DNA of 32,000 nt from Oscillatoria salina IIICB1. Lineage in GTDB: Bacteria > Cyanobacteriota > Cyanobacteriia > Cyanobacteriales > SIO1D9. The stretch lies in the NCBI RefSeq assembly GCF_020144665.1, contig NZ_JAAHBQ010000024.1, positions 8,784 to 40,783 of the forward strand, read 5' to 3'. The notes beneath the pieces were generated by a model that made no database searches, had not been told where the DNA came from, and worked only from the letters and a program-made list of their open reading frames with translations. Every line of letters begins with the position of its first letter. Position 1 is the first letter of the stretch. Of this stretch, positions 7,400 through 12,913 are shown one piece after another. The translations under genes and the position numbers were made by a program.

Positions 7400-8215
7400 T
7401 CAAATTTGTACGAATTCCTCTAAAAAACCTCGCTTTCCCAGTCGGGCTATGGAAGCTGCAACTGGTAATCTGGGACTGTCGAGAAGTTGTGCAATTTCGG
7501 TTACATCTGGCTGTCCAAATTGTTGAATTGTTTGTAAAACTTGGCGATCGAATATGACATTGCTAAATTCATTTTTCAGGATTGATTGAATTTGGGTAAT
7601 GACGATATTAGCATTATCAGCAGGGACACATTCACCACCAGTCAGAGTGGCGATCGCGTTAAAGGCTTCGTTCGTCAGGCGATCGCGCACCATAGACAAA
7701 CTATACACCTTCACCCGCTTATCTTCAGCCGTCGCCGTGACCAATTGTACATCTAAACCACTCGGACAACCATCGTGCCAGGAATCGCTACCTTTACCTA
7801 ATTTTACACCTCTATTTGTTTGCATCCATGCAGCAAAACCGTGAGGCGGCGCATCTCCTACCAAAATCGCAAAACGACAGCTATGTTTGCGCCAGCGCAT
7901 TTGCTGACAAGCATCCTCCACACCCCGGTAAACCGCCTCTGCACCATCGCCACCACCATCCGCCCTCAACTGGCGAATATGATTTTGCATCTTATGTAAA
8001 TTATCTGTCAAAGGATAGATGCGAGTAACAAAAGAAGTATCTTGCGGTGGATGATCGCGATATTCCACCAAACCCACTTGGAGATTGATATTATTGTCAG
8101 TGGAGAGAGTAGCGATCGCATTCAAAAGTTGTTGTTGGGCTACCTGAATAAAACTACCCATACTACCTGTAGTATCGACAACAAAACAAATATCAACATA
8201 ATTAAGACCCTTCAT
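7400..8215 (-). CDS. von Willebrand factor type A (vWA) domain protein with a C-terminal winged-helix-like tail
   Basis: MIDAS-type start 'DICFVVDTTGSMGSF', then 'GGGDGAEAV' and 'FAILVGDAPPHG'. Tail 'VTEIAQLLDSPRLPVAASIARLGKRGFLEE'. The ATG at 8215 has GGAGGAGGT 7 nt upstream (the ORF track begins one codon earlier at a TTG). Confidence 0.8.
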   Translation of the reverse strand: MKGLNYVDICFVVDTTGSMGSFIQVAQQQLLNAIATLSTDNNINLQVGLVEYRDHPPQDTSFVTRIYPLTDNLHKMQNHIRQLRADGGGDGAEAVYRGVEDACQQMRWRKHSCRFAILVGDAPPHGFAAWMQTNRGVKLGKGSDSWHDGCPSGLDVQLVTATAEDKRVKVYSLSMVRDRLTNEAFNAIATLTGGECVPADNANIVITQIQSILKNEFSNVIFDRQVLQTIQQFGQPDVTEIAQLLDSPRLPVAASIARLGKRGFLEEFVQI

Positions 8216-8326
8216 CAATTTTACCTCCTCCCAAAATAGATAAGCAAAATCTGATTTAATTAAAGCAAAAAAACAAACACCATTGAGTTAAAATAAAATC
8301 AAAACTAGCTATTTCATCTTACTCTC

Positions 8327-8680: not shown

Positions 8681-10180
<1,500 letters not shown>

Positions 10181-10200: not shown

Positions 10201-10253
10201 CCGCGCAAGTTCAAGAAACTTTGCTAACAACATTTCTACTGATTAGGGCGCGA
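10201..10253 (-). ncRNA. Y-RNA-like module a: minimal hairpin with no apical insert
   Basis: Minus-strand RNA 5'-CGCGCCCUAAUCAGUAGAAAUGUUGUUAGCAAAGUUUCUUGAACUUGCGCG-3'. It has the same conserved arms (CGCGCCCUAAUC / AACUUGCGCG) as the larger modules, closed by a ~12-nt loop. Confidence 0.5.
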
Positions 10254-10283
10254 CGACAACTGCCAAAATTATGTAATTTGGTC

Positions 10284-10407
10284 ACTTCGCGCAAGTCAGG
10301 AAAGCTGTTGTTCACACACGGGATTTGAACCCGCAAATGATGGAATCTAAATCCATTGCCTTTTCCATTTGGCTAGTATGTAAGCTTCCCTGGTTAGGGC
10401 GCGAAGT
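10284..10407 (-). ncRNA. Y-RNA-like module b: conserved stem plus a normally ordered tRNA-like insert (anticodon-loop UAG)
   Basis: Terminal helix ACUUCGCGC/GCGCGAAGU. Second helix CAGGGAAGCU/AGCUUUCCUG. Insert: D arm GCC-AAAUGGAAAA-GGC, anticodon arm AUGGA-UUUAGAU-UCCAU, T arm GCGGG-UUCAAAU-CCCGU. Confidence 0.65.
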
Positions 10408-10528
10408 AAAATCAAATTCGGTTGATTAACTAAGTAAAGTTCCGAAACGTTCTAAGCTCAGTTTCGTAAGCTAGATTATCTAAATGATTGTCGATTATTC
10501 ACATTTTAGCTAATTTTTTTAAGCTCAT

Positions 10529-10712
10529 TTTCGCACAAGTTAAAAAAGCTGTCTTAACTTTACGCCCGTCGTACACCAGCTTTCACTAGCACTGGACACG
10601 CAAACTTCTTCTCGTTAGAGAGTGGGAATGATATCGCTAATTCGGTCGCCCGAATATCGCTACCTTAGGAGCGTTATTTTAGTTTGTAAGCTTTTTCGGT
10701 TGGGGTGCGAAA
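10529..10712 (-). ncRNA. Y-RNA-like module c: conserved stem plus a ~140-nt insert resembling 23S rRNA domain IV (H69-H71 region)
   Basis: Terminal helix UUUCGCAC/GUGCGAAA. The insert contains AUAACGCUCCUAAGGUAGCGAUAUUC (complement of 10652-10677). From memory, this matches E. coli 23S AUAACGGUCCUAAGGUAGCGAAAUUC at 24 of 26 positions. A UUCGG-GCGA-CCGAA GNRA hairpin follows. Confidence 0.6.
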
Positions 10713-10804
10713 TAACTCCTTTTTTTAGTTAGTCTTTTCTTCTTTCGTATCCTTCATTTAAAAAATTGGCTATTTCGACCAAAAATAAGTTGGAAAATAA
10801 TTAC

Positions 10805-10924
10805 TTCACGCAAGTTGAAAAAGCTGTTGTTTTATACACAGGAGTCGAACCTGTTACTCTCTGCTTATGAGTCAGATGCTCTACCAATGAGCTAGTATGT
10901 AAGCTTCTTCGGTTAGGGCGCGAA
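10805..10924 (-). ncRNA. Y-RNA-like module d: conserved stem plus a normally ordered tRNA-like insert (anticodon-loop CAU)
   Basis: Terminal helix UUCGCGC/GCGUGAA (one G-U pair). Insert: D arm GCUC-AUUGGUA-GAGC, anticodon arm UCUGA-CUCAUAA-GCAGA, T arm ACAGG-UUCGACU-CCUGU. Confidence 0.65.
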
Positions 10925-11114
10925 TTAAATTTCATTTTTTAGATAACAATCGATTTTGTTTTCATTTCTTCTAGTTTTATTGAAGTTTTTGGGTTTATTT
11001 ACAAATGAGTGAGGCAAGATAAGTTATCTACAAACTCAACTTTTTCTTTGCTTTTAGTTAAACTGAGATTATTCTCAGAATGACCAGGAAAACAAACGAA
11101 TTTTAAATGGTTAG

Positions 11115-11253
11115 CCCGCGCAAGTTTATAAAGCTGTAAACAACGATCGCCGCTCTACCTAACTGAGCTAATTTCCCAACTGGAAAATATAGGATTTGAA
11201 CCTATGTCAAACGAATTCCAAATGTGTGTAAGCTTTACAGATTAGGGCGCGGG
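11115..11253 (-). ncRNA. Y-RNA-like module e: conserved stem plus a circularly permuted tRNA-like insert (YrlA-type)
   Basis: Terminal helix CCCGCGC/GCGCGGG. Insert order on the RNA: T arm AUAGG-UUCAAAU-CCUAU, acceptor 3' strand AUUUUCC, AGUU loop, acceptor 5' strand GGGAAAU, UA, D arm GCUC-AGUUAGGUA-GAGC. Confidence 0.65.
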
Positions 11254-11268
11254 AGATAAAGTTTTAAT

Positions 11269-11748
11269 TTAGTTTTGAGCTTGATAAGCTGCTCGGATTT
11301 TTCTAGATTTTATCTCACCACGTGCTAAACAACGAGGACAACCGCAGGGTTTTCTACCATGTGCAGTGGGGAAATATCGCCAACCAACTATTTGTGGTAA
11401 ATATCTGGCTTTACGAATTTCTCTTGCTTGGATTTTTCGCGGAATAATTACTTCGTAGCCGCTAGAATTTCCTAGTTTCATCAAGAGTGAGTTGGCTTCG
11501 TTTGCCGTCATTTCTTGATGTCTTTGATTGAAGTAACCTACTGAAACTATTTCGTTGTTTGGAATACGAAAGTAAATTCCGTAGATAGTTTTTGTGCCAT
11601 CGCGTTTGAGTTCTCGTAACCATTGATGTGAGGTATAAAAGTTAGGTAAGACTGGCATTGCATAAACGCCGTTGTTACTAATTTTGATACCTGTTCGCAG
11701 AATTGATTTTAACTTTTTTTCTGCGGTTAAATGGACAAAGGTAGTCAT
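11269..11748 (-). CDS. Hypothetical 159-aa protein embedded in the RNA array (possible H-Y-E ADP-ribosyltransferase-fold; Cys cluster and basic tail)
   Basis: Only substantial ORF between 10115 and 12551. ATG at 11748. It has 'FVHLTAEKKLKSILRTGI', 'IYGIYFRIP' and 'GYEVIIPRK', then 'CGCPRCLARGEIKSRKIRAAY'. No family was recognised with certainty. Confidence 0.6.
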   Translation of the reverse strand: MTTFVHLTAEKKLKSILRTGIKISNNGVYAMPVLPNFYTSHQWLRELKRDGTKTIYGIYFRIPNNEIVSVGYFNQRHQEMTANEANSLLMKLGNSSGYEVIIPRKIQAREIRKARYLPQIVGWRYFPTAHGRKPCGCPRCLARGEIKSRKIRAAYQAQN

Positions 11749-11781
11749 GAAATATCTGATTTAAGTGGAAGAAAAGGTTAC

Positions 11782-11900
11782 TTCGCGCAAGTTGAAAAAG
11801 CTGTTGTGTTATACAGGGGAATCGAACCCCTATCACCTGGTTAATAGCCAGTTGCTCTACCAATGAGCTAGTATGTAAGCTTTATCGGTTGGGGCGCGAA
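11782..11900 (-). ncRNA. Y-RNA-like module f: conserved stem plus a normally ordered tRNA-like insert (anticodon-loop AUU)
   Basis: Terminal helix UUCGCGC/GCGCGAA. Insert: D arm GCUC-AUUGGUA-GAGC (identical to module d), anticodon arm CUGG-CUAUUAA-CCAG, T arm AGGGG-UUCGAUU-CCCCU. Confidence 0.65.
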
Positions 11901-11927
11901 TTAACTCGCATGAAGCAAGAAGTTTTT

Positions 11928-12205
11928 GCTAAAATTGATGGAGATTTTTGGCTTTGCTCAGAATGACATTTTTGAGTTTTTTGGTAGTAGCTAAAATTGA
12001 TGGAGATTCTACTCCTACTCGCTTCGCGAGAAGCTTCGCAACGGAGAACGCTACGCGAACGCTTCGCTCAGAATGACAACTTTGAATTTTTTTGAGTTTT
12101 AGCTATGGAGATTCTATTCCTACTCGCTTCGCGAGAAGCTTCGCAACGGAGAACGCTACGCGAACGCTTTGCTCAGAATGACATTTTTGACTTTTTTGGT
12201 AGTAA
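11928..12205. repeat. Three tandem copies of a ~60-110 nt unit; copies 2 and 3 carry a ~52-nt GC-rich miniature element absent from copy 1
   Basis: Copies start at 11928, 11990 and 12102 (GCTA(AAATTGA)TGGAGATT...GCTCAGAATGACA...TTTTGG). Copies 2 and 3 contain CTACTCCTACTCGCTTCGCGAGAAGCTTCGCAACGGAGAACGCTACGCGAAC, where copy 1 has only TTTG. Confidence 0.8.
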
Positions 12206-12256
12206 CTAACATCTATAGTAATAGGAGATGATTTGTGACAAGATTTAATTTTCTGG

Positions 12257-12286
12257 TGTAGAGACGTTGCGTGCAACGTCTCTACA
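12257..12286. repeat. Perfect 14-bp-arm palindrome TGTAGAGACGTTGC-GT-GCAACGTCTCTACA (dispersed cyanobacterial palindromic element type)
   Basis: Read directly. Its translation gives the 'VETLHATSLH' string in the spurious ORF 12103-12297. A truncated relative (TGTAGAGAG...CTCTCTACA) occurs at 26588-26617. Confidence 0.85.
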
Positions 12287-12321
12287 AACAATGACATTTT
12301 TGGTCATAGTTTTAATGTTGA

Positions 12322-12471
12322 TTCCGCACAAGTTAAAAAAGCTGTTTTTACATTTGACGCTCTATCCTTTGAGCTACAACGGCTTAAAATGCCGTTGGTA
12401 GGACTCGAACCTACAACCTCCCGTTTAGCAGACGGAAAATGTTTGTATGCTTCCTCGGTTGGGGTACGGAA
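12322..12471 (-). ncRNA. Y-RNA-like module g: conserved stem plus a circularly permuted tRNA-like insert (YrlA-type)
   Basis: Terminal helix UUCCGUAC/GUGCGGAA (one G-U pair). Connector ACAUUU/AAAUGU. Insert order: hairpin CCGU-CUGCUAA-ACGG, T arm GUAGG-UUCGAGU-CCUAC, acceptor 3' strand CAACGGC, AUUUUAA loop, acceptor 5' strand GCCGUUG (perfect 7 bp), UA, D arm GCUC-AAAGGAUA-GAGC. Confidence 0.7.
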
Positions 12472-12551: not shown

Positions 12552-12779
<228 letters not shown>

Positions 12780-12884: not shown

Positions 12885-12913
12885 ATACTACATAAATAAT
12901 ACAAGAGTGTCAA
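12885..12913 (-). promoter_or_regulatory. Sigma-70-type promoter on the minus strand (TTGACA - 17 nt - TAGTAT)
   Basis: Minus strand: TTGACA is the complement of 12908-12913, the spacer is 17 nt, and TAGTAT is the complement of 12885-12890. It points toward the 66-aa ORF and the RNA array. Confidence 0.5.

Follow-up and report, generated by a model that had tools for sequence, protein, structure and literature searches.

A Ro60-linked Y RNA module of Oscillatoria salina carrying an apparent, circularly permuted mimic of the 23S rRNA domain IV junction

Does a short RNA segment that lies beside a Ro60-like gene in Oscillatoria salina IIICB1 imitate 23S ribosomal RNA (rRNA), and if so, which part of it and in what order? 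The segment, called unit c below, occupies 10529-10712 on the minus strand of the window (the whole stretch of 32,000 nucleotides that was analysed; coordinates refer to it), and RNA position i of unit c is window coordinate 10713-i. The original prediction, made from the letters of the window, took its insert for a miniaturised rRNA mimic displayed on a Ro-binding stem, with seven blocks collinear with 23S rRNA from about 1910 to 2060. The sequence that it quoted for unit c matches the window, and the Escherichia coli 23S text that it gave is correct. Our analysis indicates that unit c is very probably a Ro60-linked rRNA-mimic module. For the whole explanation, namely a Ro60-linked Y RNA with a permuted 23S junction mimic that acts by rRNA mimicry, we estimate a probability of about 0.65.

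In the 5′ half of the insert, ATAACGCTCCTAAGGTAGCGATATTC aligns with 23S 1916-1941 at 24 of 26 positions, with an exact run of 14 nucleotides (Smith-Waterman alignment against the whole E. coli 23S rRNA). The score of 42 compares with 18.5 ± 2.1 in dinucleotide shuffles (z = 11.1), and this is the single outstanding local alignment. The first of the seven proposed blocks is thereby confirmed. The second is a true counterpart of helix 71 (H71; other 23S helices are abbreviated likewise), in which the UCGG/CCGA stem is kept and the loop is swapped for a GNRA tetraloop. Blocks 3-7 did not hold up as collinear with 23S 1962-2061, since their score of 21 lies within the shuffled range of 19.1 ± 3.7 (z = 0.5, empirical p = 0.29). 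GUCUC-CACCC-GAGAC, the supposed hairpin counterpart of block 4, forms no hairpin in 23S rRNA; in the Rfam large subunit (LSU) structure both of its halves belong to a single strand, the 3′ strand of H61, and have long-range pairing partners. AGUGAAA of block 5 is found in a hairpin loop that varies across the homologues. The 3′ half that these blocks covered fits 23S ~1829-1913 instead, in permuted order.

The 3′ half of the window copy alone gives no significant local match in the whole 23S rRNA. Several homologues finish the insert with GGCCGUAA, which is the H69 5′ strand and pairs with the ACGGUC that opens the conserved block, and a circular permutation was therefore tested. Aligned with 23S 1826-1850 plus 1890-1916, the 3′ part of the window copy scores 26, compared with 14.3 ± 2.7 in shuffles (z = 4.3, p = 0.001), and the alignment pairs GGGCGUAA with GGCCGUAA. 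The likeness is thus not confined to the 14-nucleotide core, which the original prediction had named as the outcome that would undo it. Both strands of an E. coli rrn operon (11,368 positions) were also searched with position-weight matrices of the family. Block A of the matrices has its top rank on 23S 1914-1938, where it scores 40.5, and the runner-up position scores 6.0. Block B takes the first of 11,368 ranks on 1829-1846, and block C the third on 1895-1913, with a one-nucleotide indel. With nhmmer, the 5′ profile of the family matches 23S 1908-1941 (E 3e-9) and the 3′ profile matches 1831-1921 (E 0.029), with an insertion of ~60 nucleotides at the H68 interior. With the profile of the middle part, nothing was found in the E. 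coli rrn operon. In blastn comparisons of every locus with this operon, the matches fall only in 23S 1880-1945, and no other rRNA segment was found in the window or in any locus. Judged by these alignments, the resemblance to 23S rRNA is real and exceeds the 14-nucleotide core, and it is circularly permuted rather than collinear through 2061. Tandem duplication and subsequent trimming of the region would give this very order, and the module may have arisen in this way.

The homologues used here total ~45, from cyanobacteria, high-GC and other lineages, and one IMG/VR viral contig; nearly every copy of the module is carried on an enclosing stem. A protein-anchored scan of GTDB representative genomes gave 29 loci (numbered with an L prefix, as are the other loci), nearly all from filamentous or coccoid cyanobacteria. 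The covariance model finds a full-length module in L001, L002, L017, L018, L019, L020, and L022 (158-177 bits), so that 8 of the 30 cyanobacterial Ro60-like loci, the window included, carry it. L019 comes from Oscillatoriales USR001 and L020 from Aerosakkonema sp. BLCC-F183. A DNA pattern made of the H69-H70 linking strand (J69/70) and the H71 hairpin gave 48 metagenome contigs with a G+C content from 41% to 75%, as well as the 204-kb IMG/VR contig, whose sequence is that of L044. This pattern fixes TAAGGUAGCGA, the GCGA loop of the hairpin and a CG/CG stem core. The 13 columns upstream of it, on which no selection was made, have the consensus ACUAUAACGGUCC, identical to 23S 1913-1925, in 28-42 of 44 sequences.

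Along the RNA, the insert begins with the equivalent of 23S 1914-1936, which is followed by H70 and H71, the H67 3′ strand and a cap hairpin. The H67 5′ strand (~1830-1833), the H68 base 5′ strand (1835-1846), a short loop, the H68 base 3′ strand (1894-1905), and the H69 5′ strand (1906-1913) make up the rest. The elements of unit c are as follows, in the order of the RNA except where the two strands of a helix are placed together.

10529-10712, minus: whole rRNA-like module (unit c), full-length match of covariance model R1, 167 bits
10705-10709, minus: lower Y stem, 5′ strand CGCAC, pairs with 10532-10536
10532-10536, minus: lower Y stem, 3′ strand GUGCG; the same arms are present in all seven modules of the window
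10698-10704, minus: 5′ strand of the bulge, CCCAACC, occupying the site of the Ro60-binding motif as a variant of GNCGAAN0-1G
10537-10541, minus: 3′ strand AACUU facing the bulge, nearly invariant in alignment A1 (see below)
10690-10697, minus: upper Y stem, 5′ strand GAAAAAGC, pairs with 10542-10549
10542-10549, minus: upper Y stem, 3′ strand GCUUUUUU
10675-10689, minus: 5′ linker UUACAAACUAAAAUA, degenerate 3′ half of the H69 loop (ACUA..AUA, ~23S 1913-1918)
10669-10674, minus: ACGCUC, counterpart of the H69 stem 3′ strand (A1919-C1924), pairs with 10562-10567
10562-10567, minus: GGGCGU, counterpart of the H69 stem 5′ strand (G1906-U1911)
10657-10668, minus: CUAAGGUAGCGA, identical to 23S C1925-A1936, the strand linking H69 to H70 (J69/70)
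10659-10660, minus: GC, 5′ strand of the H70-like helix, pairs with GC at 10636-10637
10636-10637, minus: GC, 3′ strand of the H70-like helix
10641-10654, minus: H71-like hairpin UUCGG-GCGA-CCGAA, UCGG/CCGA stem as in E. coli G1945-C1961
10600-10635, minus: H67-like helix, (U)CA 10629-10631 with UG(C) 10600-10602, and variable cap hairpin
10603-10628, minus: cap hairpin, standing where H61-H66 continue in 23S rRNA
10586-10599, minus: GUGUCCAGUGCUAG, counterpart of 23S 1833-1846 (H67 end, U1834, H68 base 5′ strand)
10580-10585, minus: loop UGAAAG in place of the ~50-nucleotide H68 interior, of varying sequence and length among the homologues
10568-10579, minus: CUGGUGUACGAC, counterpart of the H68 base 3′ strand (23S ~1894-1905), aligned to CCGGUAAACGGC
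10550-10561, minus: 3′ linker AAAGUUAAGACA, beginning with the counterparts of A1912 and A1913 (H69 loop)

The fold was examined in two alignments with a model of 42 pairs. In the MAFFT alignment of 17 sequences, which was fitted to no structure (A1), 94.2% of the pairs are formed, and 25 pairs are changed on both sides, compared with 10.9 ± 2.2 in shuffles (0 of 500 reach 25) and at most 9 in slid controls. The second alignment (A3) is fitted to the model and holds 44 rRNA-like sequences together with two tRNA-like rows that are gapped across the insert. Here pairing is 93.9%, 36 of the 42 pairs are changed on both sides, and the covariation score is 0.476 vs 0.153. Compensatory change is present in every helix. 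Covariation from homologous loci, which the original prediction had proposed to look for, thus supports the fold, with about 94% of pairs formed in either alignment. The helices of the Y RNA map one to one onto H67, the H68 base, H69, H70, and H71 of 23S rRNA.

The six pairs of the H69-like stem are formed as in E. coli from U1911-A1919 to G1906-C1924, the G.U wobble included, and the lower three are present in all 44 homologues and all covary. The family consensus at the columns of the 5′ linker, which lie outside the search pattern, is ACUAUAA, the same as 23S 1913-1919. The H70-like helix corresponds to the two outer pairs of native H70. Its pairs are G-C or G-U in 44 of 44 sequences and C-G in 44 of 44, and beyond a one-nucleotide bulge a G-Y pair is formed in 39 of 44. 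This G-Y pair parallels G1935-C1962 of the Rfam LSU structure. In the H71-like stem, three of the five pairs covary, and the heptaloop of 23S rRNA is the part replaced by the tetraloop. The H67-like pairs (115-117 with 208-210 of A3) covary as A-U (22), G-C (9), and U-A (3). The segment 10600-10635, which includes these pairs and the cap, has no sequence similarity to 23S rRNA. A first guess for the H67-like helix, GCGA/UUGC, was dropped for GCA/UGC together with the GC/GC H70-like helix, since L058, L032, and L069 covary only with the latter. The H68 base keeps its layout: GCC, a CG bulge, GU, G.U, and CCGG in the Rfam structure become GYC, CA, CU, G.U, and CCAG in the mimic. The G.U wobble is retained in 38 of 44 homologues. 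In the two helices concerned (11 and 12 of A3), pairing is 96-100%, and 8 of the 9 pairs carry changes in both partners.

Two topologies of the H69 region occur among the homologues. In 23 of the 44, the hairpin CCG-UAACUAUAA-CGG keeps the loop, and the Y stem enters the H69 5′ strand. In 11 of the 44, including the window copy, the upper H69 stem uses the 3′ strand, the loop is open, and the Y stem is joined through it. The topology is ambiguous in the remaining 10. Several target nucleotides of 23S rRNA are retained: the equivalent of G1835 is a G in 42 of 44, and the equivalent of C1920 is present; homologues whose H69 loop is intact also keep its uridines. When the window copy is folded as a single sequence, the minimum free energy (MFE) structure (−49.2 kcal/mol, z = −2.2) contains the Y stems as well as the local hairpins.

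The 5′ and 3′ ends of unit c pair into a long stem that is broken by a conserved bulged helix, as expected of a Y RNA. All five pairs of the lower Y stem (helix 1) are changed on both sides among the 44 homologues, and four of the seven pairs of the upper Y stem (helix 2 of A1) are changed likewise. Both helices are 92-96% paired around the conserved asymmetric bulge across the 44 homologues, with covariation. On the 3′ side of the bulge, the ACUUG sequence is also found in the 3′ strand of human Y1 RNA. The canonical Ro60-binding motif on the 5′ strand is GNCGAAN0-1G (PMC4201824), and high-GC members such as L041 and L050 carry it (GGCCGAAAGG). All cyanobacterial modules carry a CCCYAAC variant, alongside a very divergent Ro60. 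Co-evolution of the protein and its RNA site may account for this combination.

The module is encoded within a few kilobases of a Ro60 (TROVE) gene, a second feature expected of Y RNAs. This gene follows the array of modules to which unit c belongs.

8681-10114, minus: divergent Ro60 (TROVE plus vWA), 477 amino acids, downstream of the array, identified by hhalign

Searches of Pfam and NCBIfam leave the 477-residue protein unrecognised, with no TROVE match, and its best PDB match, the TROVE protein 9l5y, is weak (E 0.002). A profile of 19 cyanobacterial homologues placed 14 TROVE proteins from other loci at the top among 409 neighbouring open reading frames (ORFs). By hhalign, the cyanobacterial Ro60-like family matches TROVE proteins with 98.1% probability (E 7e-14, 425 columns). 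Because of this profile ranking and the hhalign match to TROVE proteins, we identify the 477-residue protein, at the level of sequence profiles, as a divergent Ro60, with vWA as its C-terminal domain. The same-strand gene adjoining the module encodes TROVE plus vWA_Ro60 in each of the non-cyanobacterial loci tested (9 of 9), and homologues of the Ro60 of the window are encoded beside the module in seven cyanobacteria-like metagenome loci. The proposal of a miniaturised rRNA mimic on a Ro-binding stem is thus borne out by the arms that unit c shares with six other modules, by the Ro60 ORF on the same strand 418 nucleotides downstream, by covariation, and by TROVE neighbours in other phyla. A stand-alone VWA protein (7400-8218, minus) comes after the Ro60-like gene, whose product already has its own vWA domain. 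Conserved copies of this VWA protein, with 58-60% identity, follow the Ro60-like gene in L020, L024, and L034; in L017 the copy lies just upstream of that gene.

The array on the minus strand holds seven Y-like modules, spans 10202-12468, and is made up as follows. All the modules share the arms CGCRCCCYAAYC ... AACUUGYGCG.

12325-12468, minus: Y-like module, YrlA type, permuted tRNA arms
11784-11898, minus: Y-like module, tRNA-like, canonical arm order
11117-11251, minus: Y-like module, YrlA type, permuted tRNA arms
10807-10922, minus: Y-like module, tRNA-like, canonical arm order
10532-10709, minus: Y-like module, rRNA-like (within unit c)
10288-10403, minus: Y-like module, tRNA-like, canonical arm order
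10202-10252, minus: Y-like module, minimal

Three modules of the array enclose a sequence called as tRNA by Rfam and ARAGORN, and the Rfam YrlA model scores 37.8 bits at 11127-11236, under its gathering score of 69. The tRNA-like modules are of two kinds. In one (10288-10403, 10807-10922, 11784-11898), the Y stem runs into an acceptor-like stem and the arms are canonical; in the other, of the YrlA type (11117-11251, 12325-12468), the T arm comes ahead of the D arm. Between two Y modules, at 11930-12210 (minus), lie ~2.5 direct copies of a ~95-nucleotide repeat (gtcattctgagcgaagcgttcgcgtagcgttctccgttgcgaagcttctcgcgaagcgagtagga...). An ORF of 159 residues within the array (11269-11748, minus) is kept solely in the closest relative (L001, 92%) and has no Pfam or NCBIfam family match. 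The best sigma-70-like promoter of the region, TTGACA-17-TAGTAT (10 of 12 positions) at 12885-12913 (minus), lies upstream of a 66-residue ORF (12552-12752) and the first Y module, and could drive the whole array; the number of sites found in the promoter and terminator scan of the region is not above chance expectation. The neighbours of the module are Y modules, Ro60, the VWA protein, DUF433, and a DnaJ-domain protein, and none of its neighbours in the window is a ribosomal protein (r-protein) gene.

Several assignments to known classes were tried and rejected. Rfam 15, searched at gathering thresholds and at E ≤ 10 with relaxed filters, returns no family for the module, and on 11 homologous loci it returns tRNAs only. 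Within 10500-10740, there is no YrlA or tRNA match at E ≤ 10 with relaxed filters, and ARAGORN also returns nothing; T and D arms are lacking, and a YrlA or tRNA-like module was rejected. An LSU rRNA gene or pseudogene was rejected on the permuted order, on the blastn matches limited to 23S 1880-1945, and on the Rfam LSU model, which has no match to the module. An r-protein leader was rejected for want of an r-protein gene nearby. The primary YrlA papers describe tRNA-like modules only (among them PMC4201824 and 10.1101/312249). The statement of the original prediction that no rRNA-like Y RNA had been described agrees with Rfam 15 and with our literature search, in which no description was found; key reviews lie outside that reading, so a prior mention is possible. 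The modules thus form a widespread and apparently undescribed class of Ro60-linked Y RNAs with a permuted mimic of the 23S domain IV junction.

The module occurs in varied settings. Metagenome Ro60 loci with the module sit in very large tRNA-gene arrays (L034 10867-13702; L039, L045, L059, L060, and L070). In 11 loci covering 114 kb in total, there are 140 Rfam tRNA matches, and in L034 ~25 tRNA genes lie directly upstream of the Y modules. The module at L044 7423-7616 is the same as that of L079 (IMG/VR UViG_3300024336_000005, 204 kb), a contig listed as viral that encodes several tRNAs and a canonical Ro60 besides the rRNA-like Y module. Of 47 further viral Ro60 loci retrieved by protein, one contributed a weak and divergent member (L117 6244-6432); it is without the GCGA/H71-type hairpin, and the family is therefore wider than the search pattern. 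The window copy has no blastn match in PLSDB plasmids or INPHARED phages. A PLSDB search with E. coli 23S 1820-2001 gave 642 records, with no cyanobacterial one among the matches listed.

Y RNAs are built of modules, one that binds Ro60 and a second for binding an effector. The effector module of YrlA is a permuted tRNA whose acceptor end is a closed loop and whose anticodon loop is missing. The closest comparison is with YrlA (RF02553), which occurs in the same arrays. Like the present module, it stands beside Ro60 and joins a basal stem-bulge-stem to an apical copy of a translation-apparatus RNA; in both, the copy is permuted, the native ends are looped shut, and the Ro60 stem is attached via an opened loop (the anticodon end in YrlA, the H69 loop here). 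Unlike YrlA, the present module copies a four-helix 23S junction, is without a T or D arm, and is ~60 nucleotides longer. That YrlA is modular, permuted and recognised by tRNA enzymes is described in the primary YrlA papers. TruB and DusA are the enzymes by which YrlA was shown to be read as a tRNA. Deinococcus radiodurans Yrn1/RYPER is also a modular Y RNA, whose second module tethers Ro60 to the effector PNPase. It differs in that the effector module consists of stem-loops binding the KH and S1 domains, with no rRNA similarity reported. The r-protein leaders resemble the module as short RNAs that imitate a local rRNA structure for an rRNA-binding partner. They are 5′ untranslated elements of r-protein operons with mimicry of shape and usually little sequence identity, whereas the module stands alone on a Y stem beside Ro60 and is near-identical to 23S rRNA over ~25 nucleotides. 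With the native H67-H71 junction itself, the module shares the identity at 1913-1936, the H69 pairs, the H71 stem, the layout of the H68 base, the G1935-C1962-type pair, and H67. Unlike the native junction, it is permuted, and the H68 interior (~50 nucleotides) and H61-H66 are cut to short loops. Also unlike the native junction, the 9-nucleotide H70 loop with U1939 is deleted, the H71 heptaloop is a GNRA loop, and the H69 loop is opened in the window copy.

We propose that unit c is a noncoding RNA gene of the Y RNA type on the minus strand, which would be transcribed with or beside the divergent Ro60 gene. The basal stem-bulge-stem would be the putative Ro60-binding module, and the apical 138 nucleotides are predicted to fold as a miniature, circularly permuted 23S domain IV junction (H67-H71), with the Ro60 stem joined via the opened H69 loop and H67 closed by the cap. 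By molecular mimicry, factors that read the H67-H71 junction would bind the module. Candidate partners act on naked, immature or split 50S subunits: RlmG (G1835), RluD and RlmH (H69), and HflX with RRF (the H69/H71 cleft). The module would link such factors to Ro60 and its partner exonucleases, or draw them away from ribosomes. The action as a tether or decoy for a protein recognising the junction is a reasonable possibility, which we put somewhat short of even.

A number of observations weigh against this explanation. The 23S comparisons use E. coli 23S rRNA and not that of the host, and the equivalence of the 3′ half comprises modest sequence statistics plus a structural match. Most homologues came via the J69/70 and H71 pattern, so that part of the conservation there reflects selection during retrieval. 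The sequence of the window copy is GCACCCCAACCG, with CCCAAC where NCGAA is expected, and its Ro60 is too divergent for Pfam. Its first H67-like pair is U/C and broken, and its MFE fold is without the long-range H69-like helix. As for partners, the opened H69 loop makes RluD and RlmH less likely for the window copy than for the 23 of 44 homologues that keep the loop, and deletion of the H70 loop that contains U1939 rules out recognition of the RlmD or MazF-mt6 type.

How the module might act otherwise depends on what the retained junction is for. In the native 50S subunit, the H71 stem forms bridge B3. H69 forms bridge B2a, the H68 base B2b, H67 B2c, and H68 B7a, and HflX uses the H69/H71 cleft (PMC11040002, numbered for L. 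monocytogenes, ~+32 relative to E. coli by our own reckoning). The retained segments are thus those that build the central bridges, while the rest of domain IV is deleted, and the module could dock on the 30S subunit (h44, h24, h27, and h45) as the 50S subunit does. Such docking would deliver Ro60 and its exonucleases to 30S subunits that are free or defective, or prevent the subunits from joining. We consider it unlikely, because in the window copy and 10 other homologues the Y stem is attached through the H69 loop, the tip that inserts against h44, because the contact nucleotides of B7a lie at or past the H68 truncation, and because any mimic of the junction would need the same pieces. A broader form, in which Ro60, in bacteria and in at least one contig listed as viral, displays a folded replica of the central 50S bridge surface (H67, H68 base, H69, and H71) that docks either on 30S or on factors reading that surface, seems unlikely. 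Together with the tRNA-like modules, unit c might instead be bait for RNA-damaging enzymes such as toxins and phage or host nucleases, and would then shield the real 23S rRNA or yield a damage signal for repair. The company of the module (tRNA-like arrays, very large tRNA-gene arrays, and the 204-kb contig listed as viral) suits such a role. We know of no toxin that targets the retained junction, and MazF-mt6 cuts the H70 UUCCU loop, which is deleted in the mimic. Ro60 operons are tied to RNA repair in Salmonella (PMC7790460); RtcB and RtcR genes are both absent from the window, and the bait role appears quite improbable.

That the mimic is addressed to Ro60 itself can be weighed in the same manner. 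It would resemble a part of misfolded or immature 23S rRNA that Ro60 recognises, and would occupy Ro60 until a real substrate arrives. A Y RNA blocks Rsr-dependent 23S maturation in D. radiodurans, and a gate model is established for Y RNAs (PMC4201824, 10.1101/312249). Nothing points to recognition of domain IV by Ro60, and the presence of tRNA-like modules in the same Ro60 loci argues for external partners, so that this role is very unlikely. The simplest alternative is a decayed fragment of an rRNA operon, which the original prediction had named as a possible refutation, or a chance likeness confined to the 14-nucleotide core. The silence of the Rfam LSU model on the region and the lack of a significant 23S match for the window 3′ half alone would agree with it. 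It is hardly credible in view of the permuted order, the conserved stem arms, the compensatory changes in every helix and the absence of any other rRNA piece from all loci. Furthermore, in several phyla the module is invariably carried by a Y stem next to Ro60, and 23S-like bases are conserved outside the retrieval pattern. A Y RNA module that acts by mimicry of the 23S junction remains our preferred reading.

The binding targets of bacterial Y RNA effector modules have been an open question since the tRNA mimicry of YrlA was recognised. A second, independent mimic, this time of a 23S junction, suggests that bacterial Ro60 ribonucleoproteins share the translation apparatus as their target. The module, whose native counterpart is known, offers a bait of ~140 nucleotides for factors of rRNA modification, assembly or recycling, or for the 30S subunit. 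As a natural, permuted and minimised rRNA junction that presumably still folds, it could also help structural work on domain IV. If the replica of the bridge surface proves true, ribosome surveillance by Ro60 would be RNA-guided, and the module would stand as the first mimic of a ribosomal subunit interface that occurs naturally and acts in trans. Y RNAs would then be a general platform that shows permuted copies of translation RNAs, both tRNA and rRNA.

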